A DNA stretch of 6,457 bases from a virus. Lineage: Duplodnaviria > Heunggongvirae > Uroviricota > Caudoviricetes. The stretch lies in the IMG/VR virus record IMGVR_UViG_2563366830_000009; one strand, given 5' to 3'. A program made the translations under genes and the position numbers. How positions within the stretch are numbered: the stretch's first letter is position 1; each line of letters opens with the position of its first letter. Under the pieces are notes generated by a model that was not told the origin of the DNA, made no database searches, and was given only the letters and a program-made list of their open reading frames with translations. Below are positions 1,099 through 6,361 of this stretch, in pieces.

Positions 1099-1113
1099 TT
1101 ACCTTTAAGGTAA
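1099..1113. promoter_or_regulatory. Operator-like perfect palindrome TTACCTTTAAGGTAA (site 1), overlapping a -10-like hexamer of a minus-strand promoter
   Basis: Minus strand reads TTGCAG(1141-1136)-17 nt-TACTAT(1118-1113) running into the palindrome. The identical 16-mer TTACCTTTAAGGTAAT recurs at 3921-3936. Confidence 0.55.
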
Positions 1114-2340: not shown

Positions 2341-3060
2341 TCAGAAGAACCCTGCCTTGTCGTTGATGTACTCCGCGTGGGTCTGGATATCACGCAGGCA
2401 TTTGCTCACACCGACGATGTAGCAGAACATGGTGGTCAGCTCCGCCGCCGCGCCCGATACGTCATGCCCGTCTTCCTGTAACTGGTTCAGCAAATTCATC
2501 AGCAGTGAGTTCTCCGTCAGGCCGAGAACACCAGACGGCGAGTGAATCAGGCTGCGGTAGCCGGGCTTCAGTGGGGCGCTGTATTCTTTTTTGTCTTCCA
2601 GCTTGATCGCCTCCATAATGGCGGGCATGAATTTTTCAATTACCTGAGTGGCCTTTGATAAATCAGCTCCACCTGAGAGACGAACATCTCCACTGACATT
2701 TGCGGGTTTTCTGTCGAAGTAGCAATCTTCCAGTTTTTCGAAGACCTCCCACGCTTTTTCAGTCTCAAGAATTTTCGCATGTCGTGCTGCACCGCGAGCG
2801 GTCCATAAGAAAAGATGACTTACTTTTGGTGCAATATTAAGCAAACCTCTTTGAGAGGACTCGTTCTTAAATGCTCGTAATTCTTCGCCTATCAGCTTGA
2901 AACAATGTTTTCCCTCAATGAATCGATCTGCATTTCGTTGATAGTTTTGACGAATCAGTTTGGGTTCTGTGTCATACAAATCAGCAAGCATTTCTGTAGT
3001 CATTACAGGGATGTTGCAATGAGTTGTTATCGGCAACTTATCAATAGCTATATTACGCAT
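2341..3060 (-). CDS. ORF6N-domain (KilA-N superfamily) protein, often annotated as phage antirepressor-like; N-terminal ORF6N domain plus an uncharacterised C-terminal domain of about 130 aa
   Basis: N-terminal region (VMTTEMLADLYDTEPKLIRQNYQRNADRFIEGKHCFKLIGEE...LWTARGAARHAKILETEKA) fits the ORF6N consensus as I recall it (VMLD-DLA-LY...RN-RFP-F-L-EE). The track start is 3075, but GGAGG with 8-nt spacing favours ATG at 3060-3058. That start overlaps the upstream gene stop (3053-3055) in the sequence ATGCGTAA. Confidence 0.6.
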   Translation of the reverse strand: MRNIAIDKLPITTHCNIPVMTTEMLADLYDTEPKLIRQNYQRNADRFIEGKHCFKLIGEELRAFKNESSQRGLLNIAPKVSHLFLWTARGAARHAKILETEKAWEVFEKLEDCYFDRKPANVSGDVRLSGGADLSKATQVIEKFMPAIMEAIKLEDKKEYSAPLKPGYRSLIHSPSGVLGLTENSLLMNLLNQLQEDGHDVSGAAAELTTMFCYIVGVSKCLRDIQTHAEYINDKAGFF

Positions 3061-3559
3061 TTTCATTGCCTCCATCTTTCACGACGAAATAGCAATTATC
3101 TTTATAATCTAACTGGATGAACTTTATGTTTTCAGGGAGTTTTACAGAAAGAGTTTTTGCACAAGCAAAACCAAAATCTGCGCCAGAAGCATCCATATAC
3201 CTTAATAATTGTTTTAATGCTGAAGGAGAAAAAGTATCTACCTTCACCTCAACAGGGTAACCATCTTTTGTTTTTAGGTCTGGTTGACCTGGTCCACCAA
3301 GTATTTCAGCGTTAAGGTATTTTGCTATTTCTGGATAAGCGTTGTATTCAGAGCGTAGTTTTGCCTTGTTATCGACTGCTAGTTGCATAAGATGATCAAA
3401 CAAATTGGTATCTAAATCTGCCCCTTCATCCCACATTCTATTTCTACAGCTAATCAATTCACTGACCAGTGGTGCACTTTCTTGCCTTAGCATAAGAAGG
3501 AGTGGAGAATTAGAAATTAACCAATACAGATCGTCGTTTGAGATTTTTTGGCCTGGCAT
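3053..3559 (-). CDS. Hypothetical protein (168 aa), AT-rich, translationally coupled to the ORF6N gene
   Basis: RBS GAGGT about 7 nt before ATG at 3559. Overlaps the downstream gene by 8 nt. No recognisable domain by eye. Confidence 0.5.
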   Translation of the reverse strand: MPGQKISNDDLYWLISNSPLLLMLRQESAPLVSELISCRNRMWDEGADLDTNLFDHLMQLAVDNKAKLRSEYNAYPEIAKYLNAEILGGPGQPDLKTKDGYPVEVKVDTFSPSALKQLLRYMDASGADFGFACAKTLSVKLPENIKFIQLDYKDNCYFVVKDGGNENA

Positions 3560-3835
3560 AGCGATACCTCTACTAGTAAGTTACCTACCACCGCAACGCC
3601 AATTGCTGGTGGTGAACTGGACAAGGTTGGCGTACCGGCCTAGTAGGTACCGGCGCACCTTTCGGTGCCCCTGCCCAGCCCACCATAATTCGGATATGAC
3701 TGTGCTATACGCATAAAAAAACCACGTCTGGCGTGGTATGCGCCTACTAGTAATCCGGGACGCCAATCCCGGCACTGGATTTTGCCAGTGCCCGATTACT
3801 ATGGCACAAGAGGAGTGCGATGTAAATTTACCGAA
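3560..3835 (-). ncRNA. Candidate structured RNA: either an sRNA of about 120 nt (roughly 3835 to 3714) or a long attenuator-type 5' leader of the 168-aa/ORF6N operon
   Basis: Multiple nested stem-loops are visible: an outer stem AGTAATC/GATTACT (3748-3754 with 3794-3800) enclosing hairpins CCGGGA-CGCCAA-TCCCGG and CACTGG-ATTTTG-CCAGTG; GCACC-TTTC-GGTGC; ACCACC...GGTGGT. A promoter with overlapping operator sits upstream and the terminator is at 3714-3737. No ATG-initiated ORF in this minus-strand stretch. Confidence 0.3.
3714..3737 (-). terminator. Intrinsic terminator-like hairpin on the minus strand (ACCACG-CCAGA-CGTGGT followed by U6-7) inside the long region upstream of the 168-aa gene
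   Basis: Plus strand shows aaaaaaACCACGtctggCGTGGT; on the minus strand the 6-bp stem is followed by a T-run. It lies about 155 nt upstream of the 168-aa start codon. Confidence 0.5.
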
Positions 3836-3871
3836 AAGGTAATGATAAACGCTAAGAAATATTAAAATCAA
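3828..3871 (-). promoter_or_regulatory. Minus-strand promoter (-35 TTGATT 3871-3866, 18-nt spacer, -10 TATCAT 3847-3842) overlapping operator-like site 3, TTACCGAAAAGGTAA (3828-3842)
   Basis: Minus strand reads TTGATTttaatatttcttagcgttTATCATTACCTTTTCGGTAA. The arrangement of a -10 hexamer running into the TTACC half-site is the same as at site 1 (TACTATTACC). Confidence 0.4.
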
Positions 3872-3920
3872 CCATATTTGGTTGATTGCGTTTAACGCTT
3901 GATCACCTGAAAGCAAGATA

Positions 3921-3935
3921 TTACCTTTAAGGTAA
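3921..3935. promoter_or_regulatory. Operator-like site 4, TTACCTTTAAGGTAA, identical to site 1 and 21 nt upstream of the 175-aa gene start
   Basis: Perfect palindrome; the 16-mer TTACCTTTAAGGTAAT matches 1099-1114. It is followed by tgtGAGGAaaagcaATG (RBS and start at 3956). Confidence 0.5.
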
Positions 3936-3955: not shown

Positions 3956-4483
3956 ATGGAAGTTTTCTTAATCATCGTCGGCATCGTGATTATTAATTTT
4001 GTTTTTTTATTTATTGCAAAAAAACAAAAAAGTAACGATATGCATGTTTCTACAACTGATGATCTTACCTTTGTAGAGCATGCACTGAATGTATCAGGAT
4101 ATAAACTCACTCCATACGGAGCTGGTGTATCACTCATGTCTTTAAGTAACGGTTTTTCAAAAGAAGAAACATTTTCACATATAGCTTTGATGGCTCTTTC
4201 TCAACACGCCAAAGTCGCAGGTAGTGACGCAATTGAGCTTAGTAAAGTTAGCATTCGTGCGATGTCGATAGCTGAAAACTTAACTAAATTATTCAGGAAA
4301 GGTCTTATTCGATCAGAAATATATAAAAATGATTTGAATGCTATCATGGCTGTCAGCACAATTAATGAAAACCAAGAGGATTGGATTTCCATAGTTCTGG
4401 AAAGCAATAGCACATCTAACAAGGATACTATTGCTTTGCCGATAAGTGCAGAAGCTTCTTTAGAAGCCATAAACAGCCATTGA
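3956..4483 (+). CDS. Hypothetical single-pass membrane protein (175 aa), AT-rich; N-terminal TM helix then a soluble domain
   Basis: RBS GAGGA 8 nt before ATG. The N-terminus MEVFLIIVGIVIINFVFLFIAKKQK is a clear TM segment with a positive patch after it. Only plus-strand gene in the window; convergent with the 618-aa gene. Confidence 0.5.
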   Translation: MEVFLIIVGIVIINFVFLFIAKKQKSNDMHVSTTDDLTFVEHALNVSGYKLTPYGAGVSLMSLSNGFSKEETFSHIALMALSQHAKVAGSDAIELSKVSIRAMSIAENLTKLFRKGLIRSEIYKNDLNAIMAVSTINENQEDWISIVLESNSTSNKDTIALPISAEASLEAINSH

Positions 4484-4504: not shown

Positions 4505-6361
4505 TTAACGCATCACCGGATCCACCTGGTTTATTAGTGGCGCAATCCAGAACAGGTTATTGCCGGGGATCGTAGTTCGTACATTATGTACAATACGATC
4601 ACCGACATCACCATTCAACACACCAGAGGTCACATCAATGATGCTGTCCGCAAGACTGAATGACGGGCCGAACAAAGAACTCACAAAGCCACGGCTGGCA
4701 TAGCGTGACTGTGTGCCGGTGCCAAATAAAGCCCCCAGCCCAACAGCACCACCAGTAGCCTTTTCAGCCATGTTGTTATATTCCATCAATGGCCCAAGAA
4801 TACCGGATCTATCTATACCCTCAAGCACCAGCTTCTCTGGTGACCAGTCAACATCCTTCCCTTTCGATGCTTCTTTAAGCGCATAGACCAGTGAGCCAAG
4901 AGCAATCTGAAATGCAGTGCCATAATAAAACTGCGCAGTTCCTTCCTGTAACCCACCAAGTAGCGCACGGTTGTATGAAGCCGTTGTGAATGATTTAAAC
5001 TGAAATATCGTTCGCCCCCATGACGTACTCGCCCATAAAGGTGTGTCACCAATACCGGGGGTGATGATAGTGTTATTAACGTCTTTCAGAACCGCTGACT
5101 GGAATACTCCGGCAACGTACTGATCGTCCCATTTATCAAAGTTACCAATGTGCCATCCATCAATTACCTCACCATGTTTCTCGAACTCACTGCGAATACG
5201 CGCAGCCATATTGTCGTTGATACCGAGTTTTGCCAGGCGGCGTGCAGGAAATGCACCGGACAAAATACCGTCTGAAATAACCATTCCGTTCATGGATTTG
5301 TTTATGTCATTAAAGCGATCCATGAGTGTCAGCTTGCCGAAGGCATCAGTAATTCGCTCCATTCCGGCTTCGACTGCTGTTGTCCTGGAAGAGCTGTCAA
5401 CAAGATCACCAATTGCACGAGAGCGTGAATGCAGTACAGTTTCCAGTCCGATACCCATCTTCAACATCTCTTCTTTGCTGGCCTTAAATGCCGGTGATTG
5501 GGATATCTGAGAAGCATAGCCTTTCATGGTGTTACGGAAACCATTAACCATAACCCCTCTGGCCAGATCTGGAATAGCTGATACTGTCATTCCACCGAGT
5601 TTGGTCGTGAAGTTCACATCCCGCAGAAAAGCGCCAGCACGAACAAAAAACGAAGACGGATCATCAGGCATCCCATATGTACCAACAAGACGATCGCGTA
5701 ATGCTGTTATGTCTCTGAGATCATTTGCTCTTGATTTTGAAAGTCTGGACTGTTCTTTCCGTAATTCCTTTTCGTACTTTCGCATTAATGAATCGAGTTT
5801 ACCCTGAGGAACAACTTCACCATTGCTCTCATAACGTGCTTTCAGATTTGCCACACTTTCGTCATATTTCGCCTTTATTTTTTCAGGCACTTCCCGTAAC
5901 AGACTGTCATATTCGTCCTCAATTAATTGCAGACGCTCAGTCATAGTTCGTTTGCCAAATGTTCTCGTCAACTCAATTTCTGCTGCCGCTTCACGGATAT
6001 GACGTTGCAGCACGTAATTCACATCACTTTCAAGATAATCCCTGATAAGACTATCAGGAACATTTAATGTTCTTTCTTTCGTACTACCTGCGGCTTTTAC
6101 AGAAAATACGCTGACAAAATCCTGTGGAACCTTAGCACCAGTAATTTTATTAATTACGATATCTGCTGCAATTTCAGCATCCTCAGGAACCAGTGTTTTA
6201 TTTCCTCTCGACCACCAGTCAACCAAAATACGTCGAAATTTATCGCGTTCACTGATTATTTTTCCAACTTTATATATGCGTGGGAAATAGCTTGCCTGGC
6301 CTAATGCTTTCAGTTCTTCATCTGGCGGCAATAAACCAAGCTTTTGCATTTCAACTTTCAC
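4505..6361 (-). CDS. Large hypothetical protein (618 aa as tracked), charged/coiled-coil-like middle and Gly-rich hydrophobic C-terminal segment; possibly a phage virion or injection/tape-measure-like protein; 5' end abuts an IS element
   Basis: Long uninterrupted ORF. The tracked start at 6361 is GTG; the first ATG is at 6349-6347, with weak SD for both. The reading frame stays open upstream into the IS end at 6378 and to the window edge. No Walker A or HExxH motif seen. The family guess is weak. Confidence 0.6.
   Translation of the reverse strand: MKVEMQKLGLLPPDEELKALGQASYFPRIYKVGKIISERDKFRRILVDWWSRGNKTLVPEDAEIAADIVINKITGAKVPQDFVSVFSVKAAGSTKERTLNVPDSLIRDYLESDVNYVLQRHIREAAAEIELTRTFGKRTMTERLQLIEDEYDSLLREVPEKIKAKYDESVANLKARYESNGEVVPQGKLDSLMRKYEKELRKEQSRLSKSRANDLRDITALRDRLVGTYGMPDDPSSFFVRAGAFLRDVNFTTKLGGMTVSAIPDLARGVMVNGFRNTMKGYASQISQSPAFKASKEEMLKMGIGLETVLHSRSRAIGDLVDSSSRTTAVEAGMERITDAFGKLTLMDRFNDINKSMNGMVISDGILSGAFPARRLAKLGINDNMAARIRSEFEKHGEVIDGWHIGNFDKWDDQYVAGVFQSAVLKDVNNTIITPGIGDTPLWASTSWGRTIFQFKSFTTASYNRALLGGLQEGTAQFYYGTAFQIALGSLVYALKEASKGKDVDWSPEKLVLEGIDRSGILGPLMEYNNMAEKATGGAVGLGALFGTGTQSRYASRGFVSSLFGPSFSLADSIIDVTSGVLNGDVGDRIVHNVRTTIPGNNLFWIAPLINQVDPVMR

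Follow-up and report, generated by a model that had tools for sequence, protein, structure and literature searches.

A hairpin-rich prophage segment as the probable P1 immI/Gifsy-1 isrK-type RNA control region of an antirepressor operon

Introduction

The DNA analysed here, a stretch of 6,457 nt referred to below as the window, belongs to an epsilon15/phiV10-like prophage integrated in E. coli. Between an operator-overlapped promoter and the start of an uncharacterised 168-aa ORF, its minus strand carries a segment rich in GC and in hairpins, and this raises the question of what kind of RNA the segment specifies. An earlier note on this DNA, made from the sequence alone, had proposed either a small RNA of ~120 nt or a leader in which read-through of an internal terminator is regulated. 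Our analysis indicated that the segment very probably controls, at the RNA level, an antirepressor operon of the prophage in the manner of P1 immI and Gifsy-1 isrK, with an IsrK-type leader RNA coming first and a C4 antisense RNA following. The element is already known and not novel, and curated Rfam families exist for it.

Results

The GC content of positions 3550-3774 was 0.57 when compared to 0.29-0.43 in the flanks, and for the minus strand from 3830 to 3540 it was likewise 57%, with 33-40% in the surroundings. The fold of the minus strand from 3830 to 3540 had an energy of -115 kcal/mol, against -92 ± 5 kcal/mol for 200 dinucleotide shuffles (z -4.63), none of which was as good, and the sub-elements gave z-scores of -4.87 (C4) and -2.96 (77-nt leader). 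The compositional contrast and the strong structure described in the earlier note were thus borne out. The Rfam scan identified two curated families above their gathering scores on the segment, isrK (68.1 bits) and C4 antisense RNA (76.7 bits), and the segment is thus not an unknown leader. No riboswitch or leader family was matched on the segment in the scan of the window down to E = 1, in agreement with the earlier remark that it resembled no known riboswitch class; a Trp_leader match (E 0.81) was located elsewhere in the window. Two short ATG-initiated ORFs of 33 aa (3686-3585) and 24 aa (3714-3640) were found on the minus strand of the segment, which had been said to contain none. Neither matched a Pfam family, and the ORF list and Pfam search gave no conserved leader peptide. 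Among 5,426 complete E. coli genomes, 471 carried the element, which was also present in 264 phage records. Since the prophage examined here has IS3 insertions as well as truncated genes, the module may have lost its biological importance.

The isrK match (RF01394, gathering score 50 bits) covered the full length of the model (1-77) at 3715..3791 on the minus strand, corresponding to a 77-nt leader sRNA. Its hairpin 1 (3791-3772) and hairpin 2 (3771-3756) were paired in 71% and 96%, respectively, of the positions across 42 homologous leaders, with many compensatory changes. The same two hairpins were covered by a full-length match to the c4-a1b1 model (RF03163) over 3804-3752, which scored 45.1 bits (E 3.6e-9) against a gathering score of 46.7 bits, while P1 itself scored 51 bits with this model. 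The leader ends in an intrinsic terminator with the stem ACCACG/CGUGGU and the loop CCAGA at 3737-3721 and a U-run reaching 3715, located where the earlier note had placed it. In Gifsy-1, both the 77-nt IsrK RNA and the read-through isrK-orf45-anrP mRNA were shown experimentally (Hershko-Shalev et al. 2016, PMC4825925). Partial read-through, activation of downstream translation in trans and Hfq binding were likewise shown for that locus, and may apply to the isrK RNA of the window.

One of the two earlier proposals, a separate small RNA with its 3' end at the terminator, is thus supported as far as this end is concerned, whereas the sRNA of this family is 77 nt long and starts at 3791; a size of ~120 nt would be reached only if transcription began at the upstream promoter. 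The outer stem of the three-way-junction-like element described earlier did form in the minimum free energy fold (3801-3794/3755-3748, displaced by one base from its earlier description), but it was not conserved, being paired in 39% of the cells across the 42 homologous leaders compared with 30-42% in slid controls. Its 5' arm shares bases with the -10 element of another promoter, which is conserved, and precedes the homologous start of transcription.

The stem-loops between the terminator and the ribosome-binding site, which had been regarded as further parts of the leader, turned out to be a separate known gene. The C4 antisense RNA family (RF01695) matched 3605..3690 on the minus strand with 76.7 bits (gathering score 45, E 3e-14) over model positions 1-87 of 87. 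The minimum free energy fold showed a long closing helix around two hairpins, with ACCA directly 3' of the closing helix, a sequence resembling the acceptor end of tRNA. Alignment to the 77-nt P1 c4 gene predicted a mature RNA of approximately 3684-3608, ending in CACCACC. A covariance model (R1) found 57 C4 matches, whereas blastn of the segment against 120 viral loci from a pattern scan found only a few. Across 50 sequences, 84% of the cells were paired, compared with 40-52% for slid pairings, and 244 double changes were counted against 88 ± 11 in shuffled alignments, with the caveat that the stem of hairpin 2 belonged to the pattern that fetched the loci. The covariation across homologues that the earlier note had suggested as a check was accordingly found for C4 and for leader hairpins 1 and 2. 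In P1, C4 is reportedly excised from its precursor by RNase P and represses antirepressor synthesis. The excision of a ~77-nt RNA by RNase P and the trans repression of the antirepressor are predicted for the present C4 on the basis of this similarity. The same prophage carries a second C4 module, and the pairing sequences a' and b' differ between both modules.

The two pairing sequences of C4 were a' (ACGCCAA, 3627..3633, minus strand), located in the single-stranded joint that links hairpin 2 to the closing helix, and b' (CCUACUAG, 3640..3647, minus strand) in the loop of hairpin 2. Complements to both were found on the minus strand at either side of C4. In the leader, a1 (UUGGCGU, 3760..3766) in the hairpin-2 loop is the exact complement of a', and b1 (CUAGUAGG, 3743..3750) is an exact 8-nt complement of the b' loop. 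Downstream, a2 (UUGGCGU, 3596..3602), again complementary to a', lies 2 nt past the C4 match, and b2 (CUAGUAG, 3576-3570) forms 7 bp and shares one base with the Shine-Dalgarno sequence GAGG (3570-3567) of the 168-aa ORF, whose AUG is at 3559-3557; the spacing of 10 nt from b2 to the AUG is that of P1. A further stretch of 7 nt, GUAGGUA, complementary to the b' loop over its 5' half, was present at 3582..3588 on the minus strand, off the canonical b2 position. Owing to this second site, the exact pairing is ambiguous.

The sequences a' and b' and their four targets changed together across 45 non-redundant loci, which contained 17 distinct a' sequences and 42 distinct loops. Exact a1 was found in 44 of the 45 loci, and in 38 loci an exact a2 followed C4 at a distance of no more than 16 nt (0.2% when swapped). 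A b1 of at least 7 nt was present in 32 loci, compared with approximately 0.8 of 45 when the loops were swapped, and a b2 of at least 7 nt in 37. Swapping a' and b' between loci left matches of ~1% for a and ~1 in 45 for b. The variable positions were exactly the intermolecular pairing sites. In most loci b2 ended in the Shine-Dalgarno sequence with the AUG 7-12 nt further on, and in a close relative from Enterobacter, which shares the first ORF, the set was different (b' CCGUUUAG, b1 CUAAACGG, b2 CUAAACG). The pairs G28-C162 and G31-C159 of Gifsy-1, which were tested by mutation (PMC4825925), mapped onto a1:a', whose sequences are identical to those in the window. Calculation with RNAcofold, in which C4 was combined with either the leader or the translation-initiation region, showed no gain in energy over shuffled targets; it was rejected as a test because loop-loop pairing with the C4 fold kept cannot be represented in this calculation.

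Two tandem promoters were predicted on the minus strand by consensus match (9 of 12). The upstream one (3842..3871), an analogue of P51a of P1, consists of the -35 element TTGATT (3871-3866), an 18-nt spacer and the -10 element TATCAT (3847-3842), with relatives keeping TTGCAA-17-TATATT at its place. The leader promoter (3798..3826), the analogue of P51b of P1 and PisrK of Gifsy-1, is conserved and has the -35 element TTTACA (3826-3821), a 17-nt spacer and a TG-extended -10 element CATAGT (3803-3798). Its predicted start, G3791, coincides with position 1 of the isrK model. The hexamers aligned with P51b and with TTGACA-17-TATATT upstream of Gifsy-1 isrK, the latter read from the sequence; the isrK-model match begins 7 nt past the annotated P51b -10 element in P1, and 7 nt past TATATT in Gifsy-1, for which an isrK promoter was reported (PMC4825925).

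Between the two promoters lies an operator-like palindrome of 15 bp at 3828..3842 (TTACCGAAAAGGTAA; TTACC-GAAAA-GGTAA; both strands), so that the operator-overlapped promoter was present where it had been described earlier. The palindrome takes in the predicted +1 of the upstream promoter together with the final base of its -10 element, and a single nucleotide separates it from the -35 element of the leader promoter. Motif counts gave four copies of TTACC-N5-GGTAA in the window against 0 expected. The prophage contained 14 copies, all with a 5-nt spacer and including the cI/cro intergenic region, while none was found in 16.8 kb of host flank. A distal copy (TTACCTTTAAGGTAA, 3921..3935, both strands), recognised by palindrome match, lies 21 nt upstream of a divergent 175-aa gene (3956-4483, plus strand). 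We infer that the candidate operator-binding protein is the prophage repressor of 194 aa with an HTH_3 domain (WP_000836293.1; L125 22431-23015). The position of a main-repressor operator between both promoters could mean that the upstream promoter is shut while the leader/C4 promoter is spared or even helped. A further inverted repeat, AATCAACCA-AATA-TGGTTGATT (3866..3887, minus strand), was called as terminator-like (9 pairs, 3 GC), and its 3' arm is the -35 element of the upstream promoter. This repeat, whose position is occupied by a different repeat (CAAACC/GGTTTG) in phiV10-type relatives, may serve as another operator or else as an insulator resembling a terminator.

The first gene of the operon, the 168-aa ORF (3053..3559, minus strand), gave no match in Pfam, NCBIfam, PADLOC or phage tblastn, and its family, with 20 or more full-length members, is small and confined to Enterobacteriaceae. 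Its end is overlapped by 23 nt by an antirepressor gene with an ORF6N domain (2341..3075, minus strand; PF10543, 1e-18; phrog_1760 anti-repressor, 1e-97), and the same gene pair was found after a C4 module in Enterobacter. The genes downstream of C4 across loci were of antirepressor types, namely Rha (7), Bro-N (10), KilA-N, P22_AR_N, ANT and ORF6N, while the 85-86-aa gene preceding canonical modules had no informative domain. A weak match of the 168-aa protein to a Cas4 nuclease profile (E 0.04) aligned the invariant D94, E104-x-K106 and Q117-x3-Y121, and its remote relatives gave weak NucS_C matches; a PD-(D/E)xK nuclease fold is possible from these motifs. The AlphaFold model, built on an alignment of eight sequences, was unusable (pLDDT 48). 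It is rather doubtful that the ORF encodes a previously undescribed PD-(D/E)xK (Cas4/NucS-like) nuclease coupled to the antirepressor, in combination with a repressor-operator wiring between both promoters. If this were true, an immI-type module would release a DNA-cutting effector along with the ORF6N antirepressor.

Discussion

The arrangement of these elements suggests the following mode of control. Transcription of the minus strand would proceed from the two tandem promoters, the upstream one being overlapped by the operator of the main repressor. Transcripts from the leader promoter would start at approximately 3791, and many of them would stop at the terminator (3737-3715) to give a 77-nt IsrK-type RNA displaying a1 and b1. 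Those reading through would carry C4 (3690-3605), a2/b2, the 168-aa ORF and the overlapping ORF6N gene. By analogy with P1, RNase P would cut C4 out of this precursor, and its a' and b' would pair with a2 and b2 to mask the ribosome-binding site of the first ORF. With this site covered, neither the first ORF nor the translationally coupled antirepressor would be made, and the untranslated mRNA would then be prone to Rho termination, as in P1. The leader RNA, to judge from the Gifsy-1 experiments, would bear the same sequences as a2/b2. The net effect would be to keep the antirepressor off in the lysogen, with an immunity specificity set by a'/b' that is different from those of P1 and of the second C4 module of the prophage. 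Regulated read-through, the other earlier proposal, is retained in so far as downstream expression needs transcripts that pass the terminator, but the logic would be antisense pairing at a1/b1 and a2/b2, and not the sensing of a ligand or ribosome. In Gifsy-1 lysogens, IsrK and a processed STnc1160 RNA of ~80 nt were highly transcribed under all conditions tested, and constitutive expression of the C4-like RNA enhanced, and did not counteract, the IsrK-induced growth arrest (PMC4825925, S14 Fig). The latter observation fits poorly with a simple repressor/decoy picture.

Activation in the manner of Gifsy-1 could alternatively be the main output. The read-through mRNA would fold into an inactive form, with a1/b1 of the leader paired in cis with the C4-like region, and the terminated leader RNA would open it in trans; the C4-like stretch would then be part of the mRNA, equivalent to 'orf45', and not an independent repressor. 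Reporter and mutational data showed that IsrK in trans activates anrP translation ~140-fold (PMC4825925), the a1/a' sequences in the window are those of Gifsy-1, and the conserved AUGG of C4 opens an ATG ORF of 33 codons. This ORF, however, stops 26 nt before the start of the 168-aa ORF, so that the stop-start coupling of Gifsy-1 is absent, and in P1 the same frame, as read from the sequence, closes after ~15 codons. In addition, orf45 is conserved in nucleotide but not in amino-acid sequence, and a stable processed RNA of ~80 nt exists in Salmonella (PMC4825925), while the model has no need of a2/b2 at the ribosome-binding site, which nevertheless covary with a'/b'. We regard this explanation as possible but on the unlikely side. 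Less likely still is control of termination as in P4, in which C4 made earlier would pair with a1/b1 of the nascent leader and alter the terminator (3737-3715), making read-through the regulated step. The end of b1 only 5 nt ahead of the terminator stem and the covariation of a1/b1 with a'/b', as strong as that of a2/b2, are consistent with such control. Moreover, the authors of the IsrK study likened IsrK/STnc1160 to seqA/CI RNA of P4 and raised the idea, and the read-through transcript of Gifsy-1 increased ~8-fold with IsrK in trans (PMC4825925). No alternative antiterminator structure is evident, though, and 16 of 46 leaders had no run of at least five T's, yet kept a1/b1.

The high structure, the terminator between promoter and gene and the lack of a long ORF would also suit a cis-acting riboswitch or attenuator leader that senses a metabolite or ribosomes for the downstream operon. 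This was judged very improbable, as the Rfam scan and the search for a leader peptide gave nothing of the kind, isrK and C4 account for every structured piece, and the variable positions are sites of intermolecular pairing and not a ligand pocket. A similarly negligible chance was given to a degraded protein gene. In RefSeq, PGAP has labelled 3605-3701 a pseudogene, partial and frameshifted, of a 'Rha family phage regulatory protein', and in several phage records the homologous stretch is covered by CDSs named as antirepressor, Ash or regulator. The stretch nevertheless matches the C4 covariance model with base-pair covariation, and the minus-strand ORFs there have neither a Phage_pRha nor another significant Pfam signal; a remnant of the known gene Rha was thus considered and rejected. 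Since Rha proteins are common downstream of C4 (7 of 41), over-extended reference CDSs explain the label. The annotation is an error, and one likely to be repeated at other copies of the module. The RefSeq record places this pseudogene label on the C4 stretch and annotates no ncRNA.

A control module made of a C4 antisense RNA and an IsrK-type leader thus remains the preferred reading. The strong structure of the segment is real, and standard tools suffice to explain it as a C4/IsrK immunity module, not a new RNA class. The joint change of a', b' and their targets in the 45 loci illustrates how such modules diversify their immunity specificity, and one prophage here carries two orthogonal C4 modules.

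The closest counterpart is immI of P1/P7, in which the annotated P1 record has the same order of parts (Op51-P51a/P51b-a1-b1-c4-a2-b2-icd-ant). In both P1 and the window, a1 is located in the loop of hairpin 2 with b1 just 3' of it, followed by a terminator-like hairpin; b' occupies the C4 loop and a' the joint, a2 comes directly after C4, and b2 lies at the Shine-Dalgarno sequence 10 nt before the AUG (P1 b2 4453-4460, icd ATG 4471). In either case the first ORF overlaps the antirepressor gene and the score of the C4 family exceeds its threshold. In contrast, a' and b' of P1 (CUGUCAA and CACUAAC) are unlike those of the window, and the specificities therefore differ. The operator is a symmetric TTACC-N5-GGTAA at -10/+1 in the window but an asymmetric C1 site at -35 in P1, the 168-aa first ORF is unrelated to the 73-aa Icd, an ORF6N protein takes the place of Ant1/2, and the host element is an integrated epsilon15/phiV10-like prophage instead of a plasmid prophage.

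The isrK-orf45-anrP locus of Gifsy-1 (Hershko-Shalev et al. 2016, PMC4825925) shares with the window the full-length isrK match, the identical UUGGCGU/ACGCCAA of a1/a', the architecture of a terminated 77-nt RNA with a read-through mRNA, a C4 family member 25 nt after IsrK and an antirepressor gene downstream. Its C4 match (69 bits) falls inside 'orf45'; the paper likened this downstream RNA to P4 CI RNA without naming C4 (PMC4825925). The b' sequence and its targets differ from those of the window. In Gifsy-1, it is the antirepressor whose Shine-Dalgarno sequence carries b2, and 'orf45' extends across C4 up to an AUGA overlap, whereas the window has the 168-aa gene as a separate gene in between, and its short ORF across C4 terminates early.

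The immI region of P22 (sar, arc, mnt, ant) is similar in that a podovirus-type prophage has an antirepressor gene beside its virion-protein and tail genes, and that a small antisense RNA restrains this antirepressor gene. [quoted passage not shown] It was present in phage TL-2011b (L001 79-146), which carries both systems.

Satellite phage P4 makes its CI RNA as a processed antisense RNA of ~80 nt within its own leader transcript, with targets both upstream and downstream (seqA/seqB/seqC). The comparison of this RNA with IsrK/STnc1160 has been drawn before (PMC4825925). The likeness to the window is one of description, and the reported output in P4 is premature transcription termination that keeps replication genes silent, the antirepressor not being the target. 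As the isrK and c4-a1b1 models describe the same hairpins and 'orf45' of Gifsy-1 scores as C4, the literatures on P1, P4 and Gifsy-1 describe one system, a view that aids the reading of the IsrK results.

Assignment of the structured segment to isrK and C4 RNAs

The minus strand between a divergent 175-aa gene (3956-4483, plus strand) and a two-gene operon carried the segment described in the earlier note. As claimed there, it was GC-rich (0.57 for 3550-3774 vs 0.29-0.43 in the neighbourhood) and highly structured, with -115 kcal/mol compared to -92 +/- 5 kcal/mol for shuffled sequences (z -4.63; 0/200 shuffles as good). The promoter (TTGATT at 3871-3866 and TATCAT at 3847-3842, a sequence match) and the internal terminator (stem 3737-3721, U-run to 3715) were also present at the places indicated. 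The observation was real and its description good, apart from two details: pairing of the proposed three-way-junction closing stem was at chance level (39% in 42 homologous leaders vs 30-42% in slid controls), and the stretch said to lack ATG-initiated ORFs contained two short ones.

The Rfam scan proposed in the note detected known families, so the segment is a familiar element. Full-length matches on the minus strand were obtained for isrK (RF01394) at 3791-3715 (68.1 bits; gathering score, GA, 50) and C4 antisense RNA (RF01695) at 3690-3605 (76.7 bits; GA 45). The c4-a1b1 family (RF03163) matched the same strand at 3804-3752 with 45.1 bits, slightly below its GA of 46.7, on the same two hairpins as isrK. 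Judged by these matches, the structured RNA is explained by Rfam families. In the scan outputs, the isrK and c4-a1b1 families span the same two hairpins, and the C4 clan label CL00128 is attached only to c4-a1b1. The tandem isrK-C4 pair was also present in phages TL-2011b and phiV10 and in many viral contigs.

Arrangement of the module and its counterpart in P1

The P1 GenBank record shows the order operator Op51, P51a, P51b, a1, b1, 77-nt c4 RNA, a2, b2, icd and overlapping ant1, and all these parts were found in the window in the same order. On the minus strand, the operator (3842-3828) lies on the -10/+1 of the upstream promoter and is followed by a second, predicted promoter (3826-3798, TTTACA-17-TG-CATAGT), which aligns with P51b and whose predicted +1, 3791, is position 1 of the isrK model. 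The leader carries a1 (UUGGCGU, 3766-3760) in the hairpin 2 loop, b1 (CUAGUAGG, 3750-3743) and the terminator (3737-3715). Within C4, b' (CCUACUAG, 3647-3640) forms the loop of the second hairpin and a' (ACGCCAA, 3633-3627) the joint. Downstream, a2 (UUGGCGU, 3602-3596) precedes b2 (CUAGUAG, 3576-3570), which runs into a GAGG Shine-Dalgarno (SD) sequence. The AUG of the first gene, ORF1 (3559), is located 10 nt after b2, equal to the b2-icd spacing in P1. As the P1 leader matched the isrK model, with 35 bits (below threshold) and with the terminator hairpin included, the a1-b1 leader of P1 is one and the same element as the IsrK-type leader.

GCGCAU (3743-3738), 5' of the terminator hairpin, and AUGCGU (3714-3709), just past the U-run, can base-pair and enclose the terminator in a longer helix possible only in read-through transcripts. 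A complement of at least 6 nt for this helix occurred in 11/28 loci vs 8% with swapped tails, and the helix covaries in P1 (CGGACA/UGUCCG).

A second isrK and C4 module of the same prophage, outside the window (4681-4876 of locus L003, plus strand) and convergent with the window module, stands upstream of a BRO-N antirepressor-type gene. Because its pairing sequences (a' AGACCAA, b' CCUUUGUAG) differ from those of the window module, the two should be orthogonal. The viral contig L075 likewise carried two modules, in tandem.

Covariation of the pairing sites

Homologous loci were retrieved by a loose C4 core pattern, and a covariance model was built from 14 Rfam-confirmed C4s. The model gave 57 C4 matches, 56 once the window's own copy in L003 was removed. 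The 45 non-redundant loci contained 17 distinct a' heptamers and 42 distinct b' loops. An exact a' complement was found upstream in 44/45 loci and directly 3' of C4 in 38/45, and a loop complement of at least 7 nt upstream in 32/45 and at the b2 position in 37/45. When a' and b' were taken from another locus, these values fell to approximately 1% upstream and 0.2% after C4 for a, and approximately 1/45 for b. In a relative from Enterobacter that shares the ORF1-ORF6N cassette, b' (CCGUUUAG), b1 (CUAAACGG) and b2 (CUAAACG) differ from those of the window; all three sites therefore changed together. In most loci b2 ends inside the SD and is followed 7-12 nt later by the start codon. The covariation check suggested in the note was also positive, with base-pair covariation in the C4 fold and both leader hairpins. 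The genes downstream of C4 modules were of antirepressor types (Rha, Bro-N, KilA-N, P22_AR_N, ANT and ORF6N).

Host prophage and operator

The chromosome of E. coli MS 196-1 (NZ_CP146681) has, within a prophage, a stretch 100% identical to the window. The prophage, epsilon15/phiV10-like and podovirus-type, contains IS3 insertions and some truncated genes. The 901-nt stretch around the RNA segment was matched in 471/5,426 complete E. coli genomes. The RNA segment by itself was conserved in 264 phage records, with varying flanking genes. Other genes are located at 231-743, 1418-1966 and 4505-6361. The accessory ones, 3' of the antirepressor gene, encode among others a YafO-toxin-like protein (a weak Pfam match, with a like PGAP name) and a DUF2335 membrane protein. 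The 618-aa ORF represents the C-terminal portion of an internal virion protein that an IS3 insertion just beyond the window has cut short. A 227-nt direct repeat (1-227 and 1176-1402, 99% identical), itself interrupted by the window edge, contains a small ORF with an apparent signal peptide, and a 32-nt repeat with a GGCACA...TGTGCC hairpin (1154-1185 and 2309-2340) lies 3' of two minus-strand genes.

The operator overlapping the promoter, noted earlier, was borne out as a 15-bp palindrome, TTACC-N5-GGTAA, with four copies in the window (1099-1113, 2241-2255, 3828-3842 and 3921-3935; 0 expected) and 14 in the prophage (L125 22297-31746 and L003 4263-18611). The spacer was always 5 nt, and 16.8 kb of host sequence on the flanks contained no copy. 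Most copies fall in intergenic gaps of annotated genes, in the window upstream of several accessory (moron-like) genes. The cI/cro-like region had one perfect and two degenerate copies, placed between the divergent cI-like HTH repressor gene and its opposite neighbour. This looks like a P1-style regulon in which the 194-aa HTH_3 repressor is served by scattered operators. An inverted repeat, AATCAACCA/TGGTTGATT (3866-3887), extends over the upstream promoter's -35 and is a candidate operator or a candidate terminator. The phiV10-type relatives have another repeat (CAAACC/GGTTTG) in the same position; it overlaps the stop codon of a gene of 85-86 aa that the window lacks.

The controlled operon

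ORF1 (168 aa, 3559-3053, minus strand) overlaps by 23 nt the ORF6N-domain antirepressor gene (244 aa, 3075-2341, minus strand). No family could be assigned to ORF1, whose invariant D94, E104-x-K106 and Q117-x3-Y121 aligned with Cas4 nuclease catalytic motifs (profile vs PDB, E 0.04), and remote relatives gave weak NucS_C matches. The full-library profile search returned 307 proteins at E<=0.001, and about 17 matches outside the cluster of the query itself (E<=1e-20, to P0027) were roughly full length. The predicted structure model was of unusably poor quality. ORF1 is possibly PD-(D/E)xK nuclease-like.

Probable mechanism and comparison with known systems

Sequence and homology show two putative promoters, an operator, a leader RNA that bears a1/b1, a terminator and a C4 with a'/b', and place a2/b2 at the RBS of the first ORF, which overlaps the antirepressor gene. 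The C4 mechanism of P1 was reportedly worked out by Citron and Schuster in 1990 and 1992, Biere et al. in 1992 and Hartmann et al. in 1995. By analogy with P1, RNase P would excise C4, which has ACCA directly 3' of its closing helix in the window; C4 would pair with a2/b2 and block translation of the first ORF, and the block would extend to the antirepressor by coupling and Rho polarity. By analogy with Gifsy-1, the terminated leader would compete for a'/b' and lift the block. The placement of the operator suggests shut-off of the upstream promoter by the main repressor. Relative to the adjacent leader promoter, the operator centre falls at approximately -44.

In Gifsy-1, the IsrK type locus, Rfam C4 scored 69 bits at L126 34214-34131, between +103 and +186 counted from the start of isrK and within the published orf45. 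The conserved AUGG on the C4 5' edge supplies the first AUG of orf45. Gifsy-1 yields the 77-nt IsrK and partial read-through to orf45-anrP, IsrK in trans activates anrP translation approximately 140-fold, and the orf45 region gives a processed RNA of approximately 80 nt, STnc1160 (Hershko-Shalev et al. 2016, PMC4825925). The base pairs mutated in that study, G28-C162 and G31-C159, fall on a1:a' (UUGGCGU:ACGCCAA), identical in the window. IsrK and STnc1160 are reported to be highly transcribed in Gifsy-1 lysogens under all conditions tested.

The simple repressor/decoy picture fits poorly with the short b2 and an extra b-like site at 3588-3582 in the window, and with the finding that constitutive STnc1160 strengthened IsrK toxicity in Gifsy-1 and brought no relief (PMC4825925). 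A purely IsrK-type activation, as the trans effect on anrP might suggest, is doubtful, and a P4-type termination model, recalling the authors' comparison of STnc1160 to P4 CI RNA and IsrK to P4 seqA (PMC4825925), is unlikely. Both are variants of the same known system and compatible with C4-mediated repression relieved by the leader. The note's sRNA-or-attenuator reading was half right. Its sRNA part stood, as an isrK-type leader RNA reaching the terminator; the C4 antisense RNA had been missed, and a riboswitch or attenuator is highly improbable. RefSeq (PGAP) labels 3605-3701 as a pseudogene, frameshifted and partial, of a 'Rha family phage regulatory protein', with no ncRNA annotated, and CDSs are annotated over the homologous stretch in several phage records. 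We rejected this pseudogene, as its position is that of the C4 match and the ORFs there lack a Rha signal, which also makes a gene remnant very hard to credit. The label probably stems from reference CDSs over-extended across C4.

None of these alternatives would make the element new. Fresher leads are peripheral only, namely the possibly nuclease-like first gene, the operator scattered over the prophage and the erroneous RefSeq annotation. The element itself belongs to curated families as a standard member, and its mechanism is known. A 2025 review has IsrK and c4 under separate entries; since the Gifsy-1 paper compares IsrK/STnc1160 with P4 seqA/CI RNA, the literature already ties IsrK to immunity RNAs of the C4/CI type.
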